Source: Intestinimonas massiliensis (ex Afouda et al. 2020) (lineage in GTDB: Bacteria > Bacillota > Clostridia > Oscillospirales > Oscillospiraceae). From it: 32,000 nt of DNA. The DNA lies in NCBI RefSeq assembly GCF_900626285.1, contig NZ_LR131147.1:1187953-1219952 (forward strand). Reading direction: 5' to 3'. The notes under the pieces are model-generated. The model saw nothing but the letters and a program-made list of their open reading frames with translations. It ran no database searches and was not told the origin of the DNA. Of the stretch, positions 13,182 through 25,886 are shown one piece after another (within the stretch, counting starts at the first letter, position 1; the number at the start of each line of letters is the position of its first letter). The position numbers and the translations under genes are program-made.

Positions 13182-13265
13182 ATGCTCCGGCCCTCTGCCG
13201 GGCGCCCCGTATCTCCTACTACTACCCCACGTTGGTACGCAGGCCTTCAGATCAACAGGGCGCCC

Positions 13266-17330: not shown

Positions 17331-18743
17331 TTATTCCGGCTTTGCCTGCCCGTCGGCACCACCGGTCTGATTTTGTTCGGTCGGCCTGAAAGGGTCATCT
17401 GGATCGTCGGCATAGATCCCCTCCCAGAAGCTGTCTGCAAAGCTGACCTGCTTGTACTGCCTGGGCCGTTTAAAGGGAGTCACCTTGGGCGCCGCCTGAT
17501 CCACCACGGACTGGCGGAACCGCTGATAGGCCCCGTCAAAGGCGAGGTACATCCGCCCCCGCTCTCCGTCCTTGTTCTTGGCCAGCTTGAGCACCCGGCG
17601 GCTCTCGTTGGGCTTGGACGGGTCCTCCAGGTAGAGCAGCAGGATGGCGTCGGCGTCCTGCTCGATCTGCCCGGATTCCCGCAGGTCGCTCATGGTGGGC
17701 TCGATATACTTGCTCTCGTCCCTGGTCTTTTCCGACCGTGTCAGCTGGGACAGGGCCACCACCAGCACACCGTTTCCGTGGGCCATCTGCTGAAACGTCC
17801 GGCTGATGGCGGACACCTGCTCGGTGCGGTTGGCCTTCCTGGTCTCCGGCTCCACGATCTGGAGATAGTCCACATAGACGATCTGGTACCGGTTGGCCAG
17901 GGCATCTGCACGGATGTCACTGGCAGTCATGCCGGAGGCGTCGACCAGCTCCAGCTGGTGCTTGATAATCTTGGGAGCCGCGTCGGCCGCCTGGGCCCAC
18001 TCCTCCTCCGTGAGGGAACCCCGCTTGATGGCAGCCATCTCAATCCCCGCCATGTTGGAGATCAGCCGGTCGGCCAGCTTATAACGGCTGGTCTCCAGAG
18101 AGTAAAATCCCACCCGCTTGGCCTCGCTCTGATGGTAGGCGAAGGACACCGCCAGGGCGGTCTTACCGGCAGAGGGGTAGCCCCCCAGCACCACCATGTC
18201 CCCCAGGTCCGCAAAGAGCTGCTCGTCCAGCTTGGACAGGCCCCAGGTCATGTACCGGTGGGGCGTGGTGTGCCGCTGCCAGAAGGACTGGAGCATCTGC
18301 TCCATGTTCATCCTCCGCACGTCCTGCCGCTCCACGGTGAGGGCCTGTAGCTTGTCCAGCCCCCGGCGAAGCTCCTCCATATCCCGGGCCTCGGCCAATT
18401 CCTGGGCAATCCCCCGGCCCTGAACCACCCGGGCCTGCTCCTGCATCCGGGGCACATACTCCCAGATGTTCGCGGCGGTGGGGGTGTCCTCCATGATCTG
18501 GATCAGCAGCTTACTCCAGTCCTCTCCCCCGCCCAGCCGGTCCCGGACGGTCACCGGGTCCACCGGCCTGCCGCTGACGAACTGGGCCCGGATGGCCAGG
18601 AAAATCTGCCGGTAGGTATCATCCAGGAAGTCCCGCTCCGACACCTTGCTGAGCACCGGTCCGATCAGCTTGTCCTCAATGAGCAGCGCACCCAGCACGG
18701 CCTCCTGGTTGGAGAGGCGGTCGTTGGCCTCCAGGCTCACCAT
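17331..18743 (-). CDS. dnaB: Replicative DNA helicase (DnaB family)
   Basis: 470 aa. N-terminal DnaB-type domain (EAVLGALLIEDKLI), Walker A GGYPSAGKTALA, and LVVALSQLTR. Confidence 0.92.
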   Translation of the reverse strand: MVSLEANDRLSNQEAVLGALLIEDKLIGPVLSKVSERDFLDDTYRQIFLAIRAQFVSGRPVDPVTVRDRLGGGEDWSKLLIQIMEDTPTAANIWEYVPRMQEQARVVQGRGIAQELAEARDMEELRRGLDKLQALTVERQDVRRMNMEQMLQSFWQRHTTPHRYMTWGLSKLDEQLFADLGDMVVLGGYPSAGKTALAVSFAYHQSEAKRVGFYSLETSRYKLADRLISNMAGIEMAAIKRGSLTEEEWAQAADAAPKIIKHQLELVDASGMTASDIRADALANRYQIVYVDYLQIVEPETRKANRTEQVSAISRTFQQMAHGNGVLVVALSQLTRSEKTRDESKYIEPTMSDLRESGQIEQDADAILLLYLEDPSKPNESRRVLKLAKNKDGERGRMYLAFDGAYQRFRQSVVDQAAPKVTPFKRPRQYKQVSFADSFWEGIYADDPDDPFRPTEQNQTGGADGQAKPE

Positions 18744-20832: not shown

Positions 20833-21030
20833 ATGCGTCAGTTGAGCACCAACGAATTGGATCAAATCGAGAGAGCCGTATTGGAACAGCTTAATGCTAG
20901 CGACGAAGGCCAGGGGGCGGAAGCGATGGCTAACGCCGTCACAAAACTGTCTGCCAGGGTATGCCGGCTCATGCTCCAGGAATACCAGCGTGCAGCTTCT
21001 GATCCAGAGCATCAGCAATCTGATTCATAA
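20833..21030 (+). CDS. Small hypothetical protein (65 aa)
   Basis: ATG at 20833 follows a GGGAGGAGGTGA SD. It overlaps a minus-strand small ORF convergently. Confidence 0.45.
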   Translation: MRQLSTNELDQIERAVLEQLNASDEGQGAEAMANAVTKLSARVCRLMLQEYQRAASDPEHQQSDS

Positions 21031-21118
21031 CCTGATTATTCAGGTCCGCCTGCGGCGTTTGTAGCTCCATTACAAACGCCGCAATTTCATCTGGGGTCCC
21101 AATAATCCGCATTTCCAT
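20969..21118 (-). CDS. Small hypothetical protein (49 aa, below the ORF-track cutoff)
   Basis: ATG at 21118 lies 6 nt after an AAGGTGA SD and 19 nt downstream of the cro-like stop. Translation is MEMRIIGTPDEIAAFVMELQTPQADLNNQVMNQIADALDQKLHAGIPGA. Confidence 0.4.
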   Translation of the reverse strand: MEMRIIGTPDEIAAFVMELQTPQADLNNQVMNQIADALDQKLHAGIPGA

Positions 21119-21136: not shown

Positions 21137-21352
21137 TCAGCTCGCCGCATAGTTTCCATCCTTGGATATTTCCCGGCCATAGAGGGCGTCGATAGTGCAG
21201 TGAAGCAGATCAGCCAATGCCGGGAGTTTGTCCGCATTGGGCTTTGCCATACCCAGCTCCCACTTCCGCACAGCAACAACCGAAACGCCCAGACGATCCG
21301 CTAACTGTACCCTGGTCAACCCCATGGCCTCTCTAAGTTCCTTGATCCTCAT
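21137..21352 (-). CDS. Cro-like XRE HTH regulator
   Basis: 71 aa. MRIKELREAMGLTRVQLADRLGVSVVAVRKWELG is an XRE HTH. It is divergent from the CI-like repressor and has an AAAGGAGGTGA SD. Confidence 0.85.
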   Translation of the reverse strand: MRIKELREAMGLTRVQLADRLGVSVVAVRKWELGMAKPNADKLPALADLLHCTIDALYGREISKDGNYAAS

Positions 21353-21399
21353 ACAGCCTCACCTCCTTTGGGGCTTGTTCATATTTCTTCCATGTGATA

Positions 21400-21820
21400 G
21401 AATAAAACCACAGGTTTCCGGCGATAGGCTACGCCGAGCCGAGCCCTTTAGAGGGAAGGCGTAACGACTGGACACGGAGCATCCCACCGGGATGAAGGCA
21501 CAGTCTGAACTCATAGGTAACTATGAGAGGCGGGCAGAAATGACCCGTCCCTGCTTGTAGCAGAGTAACAATTTGGATGTCCATCGGTATTTCTGGCATG
21601 TCTAAGGCCCTTTGTGACTACGAAGGCATTGGCTCTGCCCTGCGCGAAGCTAATAGCCTCATGGAAGGTATTTCCGAGGCTACTTCTGGTTTCACCCGTT
21701 CCCTCAACTTTATGCCTACTGACGACGAGGTGAATTATCGCCCTGCTGCCTGGCAACAGGCGGTTTGCACTCCGTAAATTCGGCGGACACCTACCCGACC
21801 GGCAACCTGTGGTTTCATTC
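21400..21820 (-). ncRNA. Candidate ~420-nt structured 5' leader or ncRNA closed by a 22-bp long-range stem. Alternative explanations are a MITE or an invertible segment.
   Basis: 21400-21421 pairs with 21799-21820. There are 20 Watson-Crick pairs. One A/C pair on the plus strand becomes a G-U pair on the minus strand, and there is one mismatch. The interior is rich in local hairpins. No internal ORF has an SD. The predicted start of the leftward promoter coincides with 21820. Confidence 0.4.
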
Positions 21821-21827
21821 TGGCATA

Positions 21828-21856
21828 ATCATAATCCGTAAATTTATGTTTGTCAA
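21828..21856 (-). promoter_or_regulatory. Leftward early (cro) promoter
   Basis: On the minus strand: TTGACA (21856-21851), a 17-nt spacer, then TATGAT (21833-21828). The spacer contains one copy of the TAAATTTATGTTT repeat, a candidate operator. Confidence 0.55.
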
Positions 21857-21912
21857 TTCAATATCCTTAAATTTATGTTTTTTGTCATTCTGTCAAATTC
21901 TTTATATAAGGG
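21835..21912 (+). promoter_or_regulatory. Candidate operator repeats and rightward repressor promoter
   Basis: The 13-mer TAAATTTATGTTT occurs at 21839-21851 and 21868-21880. TCCGTAAATT occurs at 21771-21780 and 21835-21844. A weak sigma70-like signal is TTGTCA (21882-21887), 17 nt, TATAAG (21905-21910). Confidence 0.35.
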
Positions 21913-21923
21913 TGTGTTTTCCC

Positions 21924-22544
21924 TTGGACATTGATATTTTTGTGCAAAATGTAAAGGCCATCTGCAAAGCCAAGGGTACAAACCCAACTGCTGCCTGCGA
22001 AGCAAGCGGCGCTGGCCGTAATTTTATGGACAACATAAAAAAGGGGAGCATCCCCTCTGTGGCCAAGGTACAGATGCTAGCTGACTACCTTGGGGTGACC
22101 ACCAGCGAGCTGCTGGGCGAGGCTTCTGGTAGTTCTTCTGCCGGCATCCGTATTCCCGTACTTGGCACCATCCCGGCCGGCATCCCACTGGAGGCCATTG
22201 AGGACATTCTGGACTGGGAGGAGATCCCGGCGGCCTGGGGCTCCGGCGACCGGCAGTATTTTGGTCTTCGGGTCAAAGGGGACAGCATGTACCCCCGCTA
22301 TCTGGAGGGAGACACTGTCATCCTCCGCAAAGAAACGACCTGCGAGAGCGGCGACGACTGCGCCGTCTTAGTCAACGGCGAAGAGGCCACCCTCAAGCAG
22401 GTCATGATAAAAGGGGACGGCAGCCTGGAGCTGCGCCCCACCAATCCGGTTTATCCTCCGCGCATCTACTCCCCCGGCGAGATCGAATCCCTTCCCGTCC
22501 AGATCATCGGCGTGGTGGTAGAACTGCGGCGGAAGATAAAATAA
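21924..22544 (+). CDS. CI-type repressor with an S24 (LexA-like) autopeptidase domain
   Basis: TTG at 21924 follows AAGGGTG, with GTG at 21942 as the alternative start. N-terminal HTH (NFMDNIKKGSIPSVAKVQMLADYLGVTTSELLG). The C-terminus has GDSMYPRYLEGDTVILRK and a downstream Lys (ATLKQV), forming a Ser/Lys dyad. Confidence 0.88.
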   Translation: MDIDIFVQNVKAICKAKGTNPTAACEASGAGRNFMDNIKKGSIPSVAKVQMLADYLGVTTSELLGEASGSSSAGIRIPVLGTIPAGIPLEAIEDILDWEEIPAAWGSGDRQYFGLRVKGDSMYPRYLEGDTVILRKETTCESGDDCAVLVNGEEATLKQVMIKGDGSLELRPTNPVYPPRIYSPGEIESLPVQIIGVVVELRRKIK

Positions 22545-22592: not shown

Positions 22593-23684
22593 ATGGATTT
22601 TATTGACCAACTAAAGCAGTTTTCAAAGCGTGTGGAGAGTATGAAAGATTCAATTTCCACAGAAGAAGCCACAAAAACGGCCATTATCATGCCCTTTTTC
22701 TCCATGCTCGGGTATGATGTTTTCAATCCTCAGGAATTTGTCCCGGAGTTTACTGCAGATGTGGGAATTAAGAAAGGTGAGAAAGTTGACTATGCCATCA
22801 TCAAAGATGGCGATCCGGTAATCCTCATAGAGTGCAAGTCGATATCTGAAAACCTGGATAGGCACGACTCTCAGTTGTTCCGTTATTTTGGAACAACTAC
22901 CGCAAAGTTCGCTATCCTTACAAATGGCATTGTATATCGTTTCTATACGGATCTGGATAACCCAAACAAAATGGATGATGACCCCTTCCTGACTATCAAT
23001 ATTCTTGATATCCGGGAAAATCAGGTTCCTGAACTCAAAAAATTCTGTAAGTCTGTTTTTGATATTGACTCCATTTTTAGCACCGCATCTGAGCTAAAAT
23101 ATGTTCACGAATTCAAGTCAGTTTTCACCGAGCAGCTCAATAACCCCTCTGACGATCTTCTCCGCTTTTTCCTCCAGGATTGCTACTCCGCCCCGAAAAC
23201 GCAAAGTGTTTTGGAAAAATTCCGTCCCATTTTAAAAAAAGCACTCAACGATCTTATCAGTGAAATGATGAATGATAAGATCAAAACTGCCTTGGGAGGC
23301 AGCGGGGGCAACGTCTCTATCAGTGACAGCAAAACAGCTGAAGAACCTGCTACCACTGTTACAGAGCAGCCGGAAGATGAGAAAAAGGCCCCCAACATTG
23401 TCACAACCGAAGAAGAGTTGGAGGCCTTTTTCATTATCAAGAATCTTTTGTCTGATATTGTAGATATCCATGACATTACCTATAAGGATACCGAATCGTA
23501 TATCAACATCCTGTATAAAGCGAACACCAGGAAGTGGATCTGTCGGCTTCGCCTAACCGAGAATCTCAAAACACTAATTATCCCAGATGAGAACAAAAAA
23601 GACATCAAGTACCCTCTCGCAGATATCTATGACCTCAAAGGCTATCACGACCAGCTTGCAGAAGTTCTCCAGCGATACATATAA
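22593..23684 (+). CDS. Stand-alone PD-(D/E)xK nuclease-like protein (HsdR N-terminal-domain type) with an unassigned C-terminal domain
   Basis: GGAGGA SD. The N-terminal ~100 aa are EEATKTAIIMPFFSMLGYDV...EKVDYAII...PVILIECKS...QLFRYF, which gives D66...E80-x-K82. The region is visibly AT-richer than its flanks. Confidence 0.75.
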   Translation: MDFIDQLKQFSKRVESMKDSISTEEATKTAIIMPFFSMLGYDVFNPQEFVPEFTADVGIKKGEKVDYAIIKDGDPVILIECKSISENLDRHDSQLFRYFGTTTAKFAILTNGIVYRFYTDLDNPNKMDDDPFLTINILDIRENQVPELKKFCKSVFDIDSIFSTASELKYVHEFKSVFTEQLNNPSDDLLRFFLQDCYSAPKTQSVLEKFRPILKKALNDLISEMMNDKIKTALGGSGGNVSISDSKTAEEPATTVTEQPEDEKKAPNIVTTEEELEAFFIIKNLLSDIVDIHDITYKDTESYINILYKANTRKWICRLRLTENLKTLIIPDENKKDIKYPLADIYDLKGYHDQLAEVLQRYI

Positions 23685-23805: not shown

Positions 23806-24588
23806 TTGAAAGGTGTGATAATCTTGGAGCCAAATGAGCTAAAGGAAAAAGCACTTGATGATCTATCTGCTTTTTTAGACTCTCTCGATCCAAAGCGGTG
23901 TCGCGTTTTATCCTACTGGATCAGTGACTATGTTCGTTTTCTCCGTAAAGAAGATGAATTTGACCCTAAAAAGCTGGTTCGTTATAAGCGGGGTTCTATT
24001 GTAAAAGTTCATCTCGGTTACCGAATCGGAAGTGAAGAAGGTGGCCTGCATTATGCTGTTGTGTTGGATGTGAAAAATGCACTGTCCTCTAACACCGTCA
24101 CCATTATACCCCTCACTTCAATTAAAGAAAGCACTGATTTGGACAATTTGCACTTTACTAAGATTAGTCTTGGAGACGAGATTTATCTGACCTTGAGCGA
24201 AAAGCTGACCGCTGCGACCGCTGATATAAAAGCAATTCAGGATGCCTTGTCTGCAAAACTTGACAAAATAGAGGCGAATCCATTTGATCCTTCCGCACCT
24301 GACTATAAGATCCGCCTGGCAGAACGACGCACGGAGATTATGGTATTGCGAGAACAACTGGAAATTTGGAAACGCAAGGCATTAAATGTGATGCGGCTCG
24401 AGAAAGAAATTGGGAAAATGAAACGTGGCAGCATAGCGCTAGTCGGGCAGATCACTACAGTCAGTAAAATTCGCATTTACGATCCCCTTTATCCATCTGA
24501 TTCTCTGGCAAGCATCCATCTCTCTGATGCTGCATTGGACAAACTGGACCAAAAAGTGAAAGAGCTTTATACTTACGAAAAGAAATAA
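23806..24588 (+). CDS. Oversized MazF/PemK-like protein with a ~100-aa helical insertion
   Basis: KRGSIVKVHLGYRIGSEEGGLHYAVVLD...VTIIPLTS matches the MazF N-terminal strands. KRGSIALVGQITTVSKIRI (aa ~206-224) matches the C-terminal strands. There is no ATG start. Candidates are TTG 23806, GTG 23815 and TTG 23824, the last lying 8 nt after AAAGGTG. Confidence 0.7.
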   Translation: MKGVIILEPNELKEKALDDLSAFLDSLDPKRCRVLSYWISDYVRFLRKEDEFDPKKLVRYKRGSIVKVHLGYRIGSEEGGLHYAVVLDVKNALSSNTVTIIPLTSIKESTDLDNLHFTKISLGDEIYLTLSEKLTAATADIKAIQDALSAKLDKIEANPFDPSAPDYKIRLAERRTEIMVLREQLEIWKRKALNVMRLEKEIGKMKRGSIALVGQITTVSKIRIYDPLYPSDSLASIHLSDAALDKLDQKVKELYTYEKK

Positions 24589-24644: not shown

Positions 24645-24716
24645 GATTAAGCAAACAGAGCCGTTTACCGGCGCTGTAAAAGACTTAGCCGCTTGCCGGC
24701 ACTTGAAAAATCATCC

Positions 24717-24747
24717 GAAAGGGCCGCCCATTTTGGGCGGCCCTTTC
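24717..24747. terminator. 13-bp GC-rich hairpin (terminator or attenuator-like) in the integrase leader
   Basis: gaaagggccgccc, loop atttt, gggcggccctttc. Short T tracts follow on both strands. Confidence 0.45.
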
Positions 24748-24848
24748 ACATGTTTATGAACCTGTACAGTCTTGGAACCCTTTCACCTTATCGTATGCAG
24801 CAGCACAAAAAGCATTTTACTCTCCATGCAAAGAGAAGGAGATTGGAA

Positions 24849-25886
24849 ATGAAAGCAAAGCTGAAGAATCCGACGCCGGTGCAGCTTCCATCCGGCTCCT
24901 GGCGCTGTCAGGTGATGGTCAATGGCCAGCGGATCAGTGTGGTAGATCAGGATCCCGCTGTGGCTCACGCCAAGGCCCTGGCTCTGAAGGCAGGGATTAT
25001 CCATAAGAATAAATCCCCTCAGGCCATGACCGTAGGGGATGCCATTGATCGCTATATAGAAAGCAAGGACAGCGTCCTCTCCCCTGCCACCGTAGCTGGG
25101 TACAAGCGGCTGCGGGAACACGCCCTCCAGGAGCTGATGGGTATCCGCCTGTCCATGCTGACGCAGGAAGCCGTCCAACGGGCCGTGAACAAGATGGCCA
25201 AGGACAAGTCGCCAAAGAGCGTGAGAAACGCCCACGGCCTCCTCAGCGCTGCTCTGGCCGTCTATCGGCCCGACATGGTGCTGCGCACCACACTGCCGCA
25301 GAAGAAGCGCTATGAGGCAGCCGTGCCGTCTGGAGAGGATGTGCAGGCCATCATGGCAGCCGCCAGGAGCACAAAGGAGGAGTTGCCCATCCTGCTGGCC
25401 GTCTGGCTTGGCCTCCGGATGTCGGAGATCCTGGGCTTGAAGGGTGAGGATGTAGACGGAAACGTCCTCCATATCCGCCGGGCACTGGTGGACGAGGGCG
25501 AGAAGGGCACAAAGACCTATGGCTCCCAGCGGGATCTGCCGCTCCCGGACTATATCAGGAGCCTGATGGATCCCAAGCCAGGCGAACACCTTGTGAAGCT
25601 CACCAGGCGTTCTCTGTACTGCCGGTTCCAGGCCGTGTGCAAAAAAGCCGGTGTGCAGCACTACCGCTTCCACGATCTGCGGCATATCAATGCCTCGGTC
25701 ATGCTGGCTCTGGGCGTCCCAAACAAGTACGCCCAGGAGCGCATGGGGCATGCCACTGACAACATGCTCAAGACCGTCTATCAGCACACAATGAGCGCCG
25801 AGAGTGCTGAAGCTGCCCAGCAGGTAGACGCCTATTTCAGCAACATTTTGCACACGATTTTACACACAGATTCCGAGGATACCTAG
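24849..25886 (+). CDS. int: Tyrosine recombinase (phage integrase)
   Basis: Start moved to ATG 24849, which follows an AAGGAG SD. SAM-like N-terminal domain. Catalytic signature: LRMSEILGL (Arg), HDLRH (His-x-x-Arg) and a C-terminal Tyr (LKTVYQHT). Confidence 0.9.
   Translation: MKAKLKNPTPVQLPSGSWRCQVMVNGQRISVVDQDPAVAHAKALALKAGIIHKNKSPQAMTVGDAIDRYIESKDSVLSPATVAGYKRLREHALQELMGIRLSMLTQEAVQRAVNKMAKDKSPKSVRNAHGLLSAALAVYRPDMVLRTTLPQKKRYEAAVPSGEDVQAIMAAARSTKEELPILLAVWLGLRMSEILGLKGEDVDGNVLHIRRALVDEGEKGTKTYGSQRDLPLPDYIRSLMDPKPGEHLVKLTRRSLYCRFQAVCKKAGVQHYRFHDLRHINASVMLALGVPNKYAQERMGHATDNMLKTVYQHTMSAESAEAAQQVDAYFSNILHTILHTDSEDT

Follow-up and report, generated by a model that had tools for sequence, protein, structure and literature searches.

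In a prophage of Intestinimonas massiliensis, contained in a 32,000-nucleotide (nt) stretch of contig NZ_LR131147.1 that is referred to below as the window, a 423-bp segment bounded by an inverted repeat lies between the early lytic promoter PR and the cro gene. We interpret this segment as an interchangeable cargo cassette occupying a conserved PR-cro slot in prophages of Intestinimonas and Flavonifractor (Oscillospiraceae), in which convergent promoters would make expression of the cargo and of cro mutually exclusive, and we assign this interpretation a probability of roughly 0.65. A first-pass annotation of the same DNA had read the segment as a large structured 5' leader or processed noncoding RNA at the beginning of the cro transcript. 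The conserved RNA structure and the gene carried by the segment are both located on the strand opposite cro; the element is antisense cargo and not a structured cro leader.

Counted along the window, the locus is laid out as follows:
21137-21352, minus strand: cro-like gene encoding a helix-turn-helix (HTH) protein of 71 amino acids (aa; Pfam HTH_3, 4.5e-15), the first conserved gene of the early lytic operon
21358-21369, minus strand: cro ribosome-binding site, AAAGGAGGTGAGG, read from the sequence and kept in all related loci
21399-21421, strandless: left (cro-proximal) arm of the inverted repeat, containing a box, AAACCACAGGTTT, at 21405-21417
21799-21821, strandless: right (PR-proximal) arm, containing a box, CAACCTGTGGTTT, at 21803-21815
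21828-21856, minus strand: PR, TTGACA-17-TATGAT, with 11 of 12 consensus matches and an immunity-specific operator in its spacer
21829-21880, strandless: two 23-nt direct repeats, TCATAATCCGTAAATTTATGTTT and TCAATATCCTTAAATTTATGTTT, presumed from their position to be repressor operators
21942-22544, plus strand: CI/LexA-type repressor with HTH and Peptidase_S24 domains (PF00717, 6.9e-24; PHROG_4 transcriptional repressor), starting at GTG 21942 or at an in-frame TTG ~18 nt upstream

Several descriptive statements of the first-pass annotation were reproduced. The gap between the repressor and cro, given there as about 570 nt, measured ~571-589 nt, counting between the cro ATG (21352) and the start of the repressor (21942). 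The inverted repeat was confirmed, with 23-nt arms that are complementary at 21 of 23 positions (91%) and have a spacing of 377 nt, and the arm sequence occurs as a single pair in the window (dinucleotide-shuffle expectation 0.00). One of the two non-Watson-Crick positions is A/C on the plus strand and G.U on the minus strand, as had been noted, and the other is U/C on the plus strand and G/A on the minus strand. The upstream end of the right arm is located 7 nt past the -10 hexamer of the near-consensus PR, and transcription predicted to start 6-8 nt past this hexamer, at 21822-21820, would begin at the outer end of the right arm. The Shine-Dalgarno sequence (SD) of cro, GGAGGTGA (~21360-21367), had been placed ~40 nt past the stem; its distance from the left arm is 32-39 nt. 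A protein of Intestinimonas massiliensis matches the cro product with 100% identity, 173 homologues of which were found, and the positions of the prophage integrase (24693-25886) and DnaB (17331-18743) genes show that the element sits in the switch region of an ordinary prophage.

Relatives were collected by three search routes, namely by looking up contigs encoding an identical cro, by scanning for the conserved -35/SD stretch directly upstream of cro (GAACAAGCCC...GGAGGTGAGGC), and by looking up contigs of cro homologues and of homologues of the small open reading frame (ORF) in the element. The resulting set of ~60 contigs with at least 27 distinct upstream regions was derived from human-gut and other metagenomes as well as from genomes of Intestinimonas, Flavonifractor and other Oscillospiraceae. 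Among these relatives no conservation was seen between the arms, and prophages with identical or near-identical cro held unrelated sequence at this position. In locus L001, for example, the arms next to the same cro enclose 362 nt of unrelated sequence. Homologous prophages lacking the segment had been named in advance by the first-pass annotation as evidence that would speak against its proposal, and this is what unrelated cargo beside the same cro amounts to. Similarly, the interior conservation and covariation in the cro-sense strand that a structured cro leader predicts among prophages sharing cro were not observed. What survives of the original proposal is that a PR transcript must begin with the element in order to reach cro and that the ends of the element are complementary; its interior is swapped and the conserved fold belongs to the anti-cro strand.

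Across the family the leader from PR to cro ranged from 470 to 1360 nt, the two boxes that bound the slot were 398-1295 nt apart, and some slots contained two to five cassettes in tandem. At least six unrelated types of cargo were distinguished among the 27 or more upstream regions:
W-type small ORF, the type present in the window
131-aa protein
139-145-aa membrane protein
~105-120-aa proteins that have a hydrophobic segment at the C terminus and, by prediction, a helix-turn-helix-like region at the N terminus
59-aa Cys-rich protein
DUF6173 protein (locus L070)
small cro-sense ORFs

A scan of six cargo proteins yielded no Pfam or PHROG family. Three matches of the pattern search (L021, L024 and L026) were discarded as false positives, an IMG/VR search with cro returned one true relative (L003) among otherwise unrelated HTH genes, and the Flavonifractor phage Cormatin, whose cro is 51% identical, lacks the canonical box arrangement.

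The W-type cargo contains a small gene and a structured RNA, both read in the direction opposite to cro. The gene is the following:
21577-21777, plus strand: 66-codon ORF (MSIGISGMSK...EVNYRPAAWQQAVCTP) for an orphan small protein, preceded by no SD and behaving as coding sequence

This ORF is open in eight of the nine W-type sequences, its indels are all multiples of 3, and its ratio of nonsynonymous to synonymous substitution rates (dN/dS) is 0.40 in frame vs 0.83 and 1.12 in the shifted frames. Sequence differences in the ORF core amount to 34%, 23% and 40% at codon positions 1, 2 and 3, respectively. Together these patterns indicate that the 66-codon ORF is under purifying selection. The cargo leader contains 1-nt indels, which rule out coding there. 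The first-pass annotation had dismissed two ORFs within the element for want of an SD; the absence of an SD holds for the plus-strand ORF, but its dismissal as a non-gene fails given the in-frame dN/dS. As candidate genes, the minus-strand ORFs of the element (51, 56 and 81 aa) were rejected since 1-nt indels in relatives shift their frames. The product of the 66-codon ORF is acidic and not hydrophobic, and its AUG is embedded in a small hairpin. Its homologues fall into seven clusters, and all of those looked up adjoin cro and/or an S24 repressor. The 66-aa protein had no Pfam or PHROG match, and its AlphaFold (AF2) model was uninformative (predicted local distance difference test score of 52).

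To the same strand belongs a ~390-nt RNA with a conserved multi-helix structure, analyzed in an alignment of nine distinct but related W-type elements in the sense of the repressor (alignment A2). On the plus strand RNAalifold predicted ten helices outside the ORF core, comprising 66 pairs with 99.7% of 579 cells paired, compared to 33-44% when the partners were slid by 1-3 columns as a control. Compensatory double changes affected five pairs (10 cells), which was equalled in 0 of 500 shuffles, with the qualification that such shuffle statistics overstate independence because the nine sequences are related. The helices are located as follows:
21423-21576, plus strand: structured 5' leader of the cargo RNA with helices H3-H8; mean pairwise difference 9% vs 23-40% in the ORF core
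21453-21479, plus strand: 5' strand of the long-range helix H1/H2, partner 21770-21796
21480-85 / 21489-94, plus strand: H3
21496-99 / 21503-06, plus strand: H4
21510-16 / 21521-27, plus strand: H5, with a GNRA loop
21529-36 / 21541-49, plus strand: H6
21551-54 / 21560-63, plus strand: H7
21574-76 / 21581-83, plus strand: H8, around the AUG
21729-21764, plus strand: 3' hairpins H9 (21729-33 / 21738-42) and H10 (21745-52 / 21757-64, GCAA loop) within the C-terminal codons
21770-21796, plus strand: 3' strand of H1/H2, with the TAA stop at 21775-21777 between H2 and H1

Several features assign this structure to the plus strand. The mirror pairs on the minus (cro) strand were 89.5% paired, which corresponds to a loss of 10% of the pairs and is explained by 61 cells with G.U on the plus strand vs 2 with A.C. 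Counted by pair columns, 18 contained G.U on the plus strand vs 2 with A.C on the plus strand (G.U on the minus strand). The tetraloops pointed in the same direction: on the plus strand one hairpin carried GUAA, GCAA, GUGA or GCGA and the other GCAA or GCGA, so that the loops conform to GNRA in every variant on this strand and in none on the minus strand. The consensus folding energy was -92.7 for the plus and -79.5 for the minus strand. H3, H5, H6, H7 and H10 were predicted on both strands and exhibited the same bias, which argues that the bias is more than an artefact of folding the plus strand. Folding of the single sequence, which was more favorable than that of shuffles, gave z-scores of -5.2 on both strands with the arms and of -2.5 and -2.6 without them, and this similarity indicates that the thermodynamics of one sequence neither prove function nor select a strand.

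Three of the pairs with compensatory double changes are located in H10. The long-range helix H1/H2 comprises 21 pairs that are 100% paired in 8-9 sequences, with G.U on the plus strand only, and its covariation is weak because most of its columns are invariant. Two local hairpins were additionally detected in A2 at columns 40-44/68-72 and 53-56/62-65 (window ~21431-21435/21458-21462 and 21444-21447/21452-21455); both are 100% paired, contain G.U on the plus strand and one compensatory change, and exclude the outer part of H1. Since these hairpins and outer H1 are mutually exclusive, the cargo RNA may adopt alternative conformations. In the W-type ORF of L027 a TAG replaces a conserved Trp codon eight codons ahead of the normal stop, and the same mutation weakens the loop-closing pair of H10. 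All of the hairpins pointed out in the first-pass annotation exist; ctcatag/ctatgag, catccc/gggatg and ctgc/gcag are kept in relatives, whereas gcctc...gaggc falls into the variable ORF core and is unconserved.

We consider this RNA a conserved structured RNA and a candidate new family on the plus strand, with moderate support from nine related sequences. The first-pass annotation had seen no RNase P, tmRNA, T-box or B12-box signatures, and Rfam and ARAGORN likewise gave no match in the element. At gathering thresholds, an Rfam cmscan of the whole window yielded DUF3800-VIII (13201-13264) as its sole match and none in the element, and a permissive scan of 21200-22000 returned two chance-level matches (E 1.5 and 4.1). 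ROOL, GOLLD, HEARO, OLE, raiA, tmRNA, RNase P, the riboswitches and other Rfam families were rejected as identities for the element, with no covariance-model match near the gathering score, and ARAGORN found no tRNA or tmRNA in it. The DUF3800-VIII RNA (RF03075), a structured RNA motif already known and located on the minus strand of the same prophage, scored 57.2 bits vs a gathering score of 40.2.

Transcription of the cargo in this direction could be provided by a predicted promoter that points from cro into the cargo:
21375-21403, plus strand: P(+), an extended -10 promoter with -35 TTGTTC at 21375-21380, a spacer of 17, TG at 21395-21396 and -10 TAGAAT at 21398-21403

P(+) would initiate at ~21410 and is directed opposite to cro, through the cargo toward the repressor gene, from a position ~40 nt upstream of the cro ribosome-binding site. 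It had been missed in a consensus scan because its -35 hexamer has just 3 of 6 matches; a TGn extension is able to offset a weak -35. The motif TGTGnTAnAAT was present in 27 of 27 distinct upstream regions, where it abuts the cro-side box on the opposite strand, and its -10 hexamer varied only at position 3 (TAGAAT, TAAAAT or TACAAT), the least critical position. In the variant locus L070, TGGTATGAT replaces the motif. Given this orientation, PR and P(+) are convergent across the cargo. PR is likewise kept in every related locus that extends far enough, with fixed hexamers and a 17-nt spacer whose palindrome changes from one immunity type to the next. Between PR and cro there is hence a nested antisense gene served by a promoter of its own, as in a noncontiguous operon, with both promoters predicted. 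Ten nucleotides of the presumed operator repeats of this immunity type (21835-21844) recur as TCCGTAAATT at 21771-21780 within the cargo, on the 3' strand of the plus-strand helices H2/H1, where they are invariant across all W-type cargo; this copy may have arisen by chance or may serve this particular repressor as a third, distal operator.

Both convergent promoters are marked by the box found in each arm, a near-palindrome (G)AAACC-RCA-GGTT(T) with the core AAACC-RCA-GGTTT. The PR-side box lies 12-13 nt past the PR -10, at ~+6 to +18 of PR, in all related loci. The cro-side box is an inverted copy, AAACC-TGY-GGTT, and overlies the predicted P(+) start; all canonical related loci have it at -60 to -66 relative to the ATG of cro. 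The box is strictly conserved and symmetric and displays no covariation, with the central R/Y position occurring in all four combinations across loci. Boxes and promoters are kept although operators and repressors differ between loci, and Cro is conserved across immunity types. The role of the box may be that of an operator for a Cro-like protein, of a long-range RNA stem or of a recombination boundary.

We tentatively favor, at somewhat less than even odds, that the box is primarily the recognition site of a dimeric sequence-specific protein, most likely the Cro-like HTH protein encoded beside it. This view is based on the strict conservation of a symmetric box at two convergent promoters in phages whose repressors and operators differ yet whose Cro is conserved, and on an altered box that accompanies an altered Cro recognition helix in L070. 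The box also has the properties expected of a Cro-type operator, being a dyad-symmetric site in the 13-17 bp range that overlaps both promoters and is conserved along with Cro. L070 and L071 contain a tandem pair of cro-like genes. The divergent member, P0117, has the recognition helix VSSNAVSKWANG and is preceded by the variant box AACCTATAGCT, with the near-identical AGCTATAGTTT in inverted orientation ~20 nt away (L070 600-650 and 1726-1737). The antisense DUF6173 gene has its ribosome-binding site and start codon between the two copies of this variant pair. A canonical box stands ahead of the canonical cro, and the box at the variant cro of L070 is degenerate.

An operator role is compatible with the modules also acting as recombination boundaries, and it is possible, if somewhat on the unlikely side, that this is what the boxes chiefly are. 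According to this explanation, a module of ~45-55 nt (PR -10, box and the SD-like GGAAGGGGG) is the site of homologous or site-specific recombination by which cassettes are swapped, added and deleted, and the inverted repeat represents the two junctions of a single cassette, which is itself compatible with the cargo-slot interpretation. Breakpoints of mosaic relatives coincide with the arms, and additional copies of the arms remain in L002 and L023, two mosaics that carry deletion fusions. In L069 (7990-10700), four near-identical PR-type modules in direct orientation separate cargo genes in repressor sense, while a single inverted box with P(+) adjoins cro. A -10 remnant, the box and GGAAGGGGG make up each of these modules, often ahead of a small cro-sense ORF. 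L041 also contains four near-identical modules in direct orientation between cassettes, and internal modules occur in L023, L047, L049 and L075. With exactly two boxes in the window and arrays elsewhere, the window represents the one-cassette state of the slot. On the other hand, the ordinary prophage integrase was the sole recombinase seen and no dedicated one was identified, cassettes were seen in this slot only, and the persistence of the box in very divergent loci points to some role in addition to that of a recombination substrate.

Two further observations were made on these arrays. The first 120 nt past PR in L023 contain an 'empty' site in which the 5' box, 25 nt and the complementary GUGGAAAUGGUU form a local hairpin that precedes the next cassette. 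Small cro-sense ORFs following many of the modules overlap or face the antisense cargo gene, as in the 57-aa/59-aa pair of L054, and such pairs resemble a defence/anti-defence pair.

Several points weigh against the interpretation as antisense cargo under a shared operator. Apart from the relatedness of the nine W-type sequences already mentioned, H1/H2 is nearly invariant and its outer part competes with equally compatible local hairpins. The proposed operator role draws on position, symmetry and one co-varying case (L070), and the starts of PR and P(+) are predictions, in the case of P(+) with just 3 of 6 matches in the -35. Internal boxes of the arrays are conserved even where no promoter remains, which the operator model does not demand. 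The RCA centre keeps its orientation relative to transcription in all copies but the PR-side boxes of the L001 class, whereas a perfectly symmetric operator would not require a fixed orientation. Finally, the box-box helix was part of the minimum free energy (MFE) structure in 14 of 17 full leaders (472-1031 nt), the arm duplex was stabler in cro sense in 6 of 7 loci, and inner-flank changes in L001 and L027 are compensatory.

The last of these points would be expected if the boxes and their flanks paired in the PR transcript and looped out the antisense cargo, with RNase III excision or 5'-end protection insulating cro from the cargo, which is a narrowed form of the first-pass proposal. The geometry suits such a stem: the 5' arm begins no more than 6 nt from where PR is predicted to start, and the 3' arm ends 32-39 nt before the cro SD. 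In the window the duplex spans 23 bp, including one G.U valid in cro sense only and one mismatch, and the compensatory inner flanks read CCGG/CCGG in the window, UCAC/GUGG in L001 and CCAGUGGG/CCCACUGG in L027. Closer examination revealed that the 23-bp stem is a composite of the 13-bp box, 5 bp of the -10-like AGAAT on its outside (the P(+) -10 on the left, and on the right a -10-like copy just past the PR start) and, on its inside, a mismatch followed by CCGG. Since the half-sites AAACC and GGTTT are reverse complements of each other, any two copies pair at 10 of the 13 box positions regardless of function, and the RCA centre pairs because the copies are inverted. Pairing of the flanks is limited to particular classes: the outer AGAAU to the W and L054 classes, the inner flanks to W-type cargo, and UUUUCAC/GUGGAAA to L001.

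Cognate arms formed duplexes as stable as non-cognate ones (-36.6 vs -33.4 kcal/mol, standard deviation 8.4). The window and some relatives have a near-continuous duplex of ~20 bp or more (-50 to -59 kcal/mol), and other relatives have 9-11 bp (-18 to -21 kcal/mol). In L003, L028, L029, L033 and L037 the arms are unpaired beyond the box and the cognate duplexes ranked among the weakest of 12 possible partners. The arm helix of the W-type alignment was 78% paired with covariation not above shuffles, A.C mismatches occur in natural recombinants, and inner-flank wobbles, as counted on the sequences, are mixed between the strands. Moreover, a stem does not need the internal symmetry that each arm possesses. 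Our conclusion is that the arms are physically likely to pair in the PR transcript and that such pairing may be put to use, but that selection does not consistently maintain it, and we regard a stem as the primary role of the boxes as unlikely. Where a palindromic site is present twice, a long closing stem observed in a single genome can be its by-product.

Two alternatives that the first-pass annotation had put forward for the same repeat fared worse. A non-autonomous element resembling a miniature inverted-repeat transposable element (MITE) would match the 23-nt terminal inverted repeat and the size of ~420 bp. This explanation is very improbable: the flanks ...ATGTGAT| and |GGCATAA (CCATGTGAT and GGCATAATC) share no direct repeat and therefore no target-site duplication; no second copy was found in the window, in phage and plasmid collections or, with the exact arm pattern (0 matches), in IMG/VR and GTDB genomes; all cargo homologues looked up occupied the same slot beside cro or a repressor; and the arms persist around unrelated cargo and overlap two promoters. 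A BLASTN search of the element against phages and plasmids gave just a 49-nt chance-level match to Lactococcus phages (E 3e-3). An invertible DNA switch at the lysis-lysogeny decision point, suggested by inverted repeats flanking a segment between two promoters, is hardly credible, as the ORF was antisense to cro in all of the more than 15 W-type contigs with cro from different samples and assemblies, the neighbors are cro, the S24 repressor, an endonuclease-like gene and a PemK-domain gene with no adjacent invertase (the integrase 3 kb away being the only recombinase), and the box is kept around cargo of 400-1300 nt and in direct-repeat arrays.

For the antisense cargo slot we envision the following mechanism, in which we infer the start sites, the transcript extents, all of the regulation and the protein binding the boxes from an architecture, a conservation pattern, an RNA-structure strand and a coding signal that are observed directly. 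In the lysogen, the repressor bound to the PR operators would shut off PR, and P(+) would express the cargo, possibly reading on into the repressor gene. Upon induction, transcription from PR would cross the cargo in antisense before reaching cro. Colliding polymerases and sense-antisense RNA could then render lysogenic cargo and lytic cro expression mutually exclusive, following the logic of a noncontiguous operon, and a Cro-like protein on the boxes could act on both convergent promoters.

A more far-reaching version of this scheme is conceivable, which we consider quite improbable as a whole. Box-box pairing would let the lytic transcript loop out and discard the cassette array before cro is translated. 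The W-type cargo would be a new class of ~390-nt dual-function structured RNA, in which the exclusive 5' folds and a translation-coupled closing helix (with the stop between H2 and H1) set how much transcription in the lysogenic direction reaches the repressor, making it a riboregulator of prophage maintenance that possibly senses a ligand or translation. The pairs of cro-sense and antisense ORFs in other cassettes would be defence/anti-defence pairs switched by the same convergent transcription.

Additional genes on the lysogenic strand were noted in the neighborhood of the element. The interval from the repressor to the integrase holds two plus-strand genes, at 22593-23684 (PHROG_4225, endonuclease-like, with homologues in related loci that carry Pfam HSDR_N) and at 23806-24588 (260 aa, with a PemK/MazF-like toxin domain), and both are probably further lysogeny-phase or defence cargo. 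A small ORF of 65 aa at 20833-21030 on the plus strand is antisense within the early operon directly downstream of cro, followed by a 14-bp G+C-rich hairpin at 21051-21083. Equivalents of this ORF were called in L001, L028 and L029, and phages of this family may generally tend to nest genes in antisense.

Morons, passenger genes expressed during lysogeny, are usually thought to reside beside the repressor or at the ends of operons. This family of gut Oscillospiraceae prophages instead has a dedicated, box-bounded slot within the leader of the first lytic operon that holds unrelated cassettes, up to five of them. With P(+) convergent to PR, such a slot would wire expression of the passengers to the lysis-lysogeny decision, and lytic transcription must traverse them. 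If confirmed, the arrangement would provide a simple means of locating, in uncultured gut phages, the cargo of the lysogenic phase, which likely consists of genes for superinfection exclusion or defence. It would further add a new conserved structured RNA outside Rfam and a test case for convergent transcription, a shared operator and long-range RNA pairing in one switch. A literature search found no description of this arrangement or of the RNA.

Individual aspects of the slot have counterparts in known systems. Long-range stems are cut by RNase III in rRNA precursors, T7 early RNA and the lambda N leader. The window duplex resembles these in joining, with at least 20 bp, the ends of a long RNA upstream of an expressed gene, while the family duplex is often just 9-11 bp with mismatches and has a palindromic arm core. 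The hok mRNA of the hok/sok type I toxin-antitoxin system is a compact structured mRNA with 5'-3' fold-back pairing. Like it, the W-type cargo is a ~400-nt RNA of many hairpins with a buried start codon and no accessible SD, a long-range helix that connects the 5' region to just past the stop, and a predicted complementary transcript from the other strand. In contrast to hok, its 66-aa product is acidic and not hydrophobic, there is no short dedicated antisense RNA gene, and the two share no sequence or Rfam relationship. The layout of the arrays is reminiscent of integrons, which also combine an end promoter with cassettes in one orientation that are each followed by a conserved imperfect palindrome. 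Membership in the integrons was rejected, as there is neither an IntI-type integrase nor an attC R/L box consensus here, and the repeats carry a promoter -10 remnant and an SD.

Two further parallels concern the proposed logic of expression. In the Staphylococcus aureus phage 80alpha, antisense gene pairs such as tha/ith, nested in a phage operon, establish exclusivity between lysogeny and lysis (PMC11087260). There as here, a switch operon encloses an antisense gene that has a promoter of its own, and overlapping lysogenic and lytic transcripts are expected to exclude each other. The nested genes of 80alpha are located inside the cI operon, whereas those described here occupy the 5' leader of the lytic cro operon in a slot that is bounded by a conserved inverted box and can hold cassette arrays. 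In coliphages 186 and P2, pR and pL are reported to be arranged face to face, with Apl or Cox, small proteins of the early phase, binding in the interval and affecting the two promoters (PMC5001618, PMC7708051). Convergence of a lytic promoter with one in the lysogenic direction is common to both arrangements. The overlap is ~62 bp in those phages vs 400-1300 nt here, the proteins are unrelated, the repressor gene here apparently also has its own proximal promoter, and binding of Cro to the boxes would be the counterpart of Apl or Cox binding in this family. Judged against these systems, the slot combines kinds of organization that are already known, the noncontiguous operon or convergent-promoter switch and the moron cassette, with a candidate for a new structured RNA family absent from Rfam.

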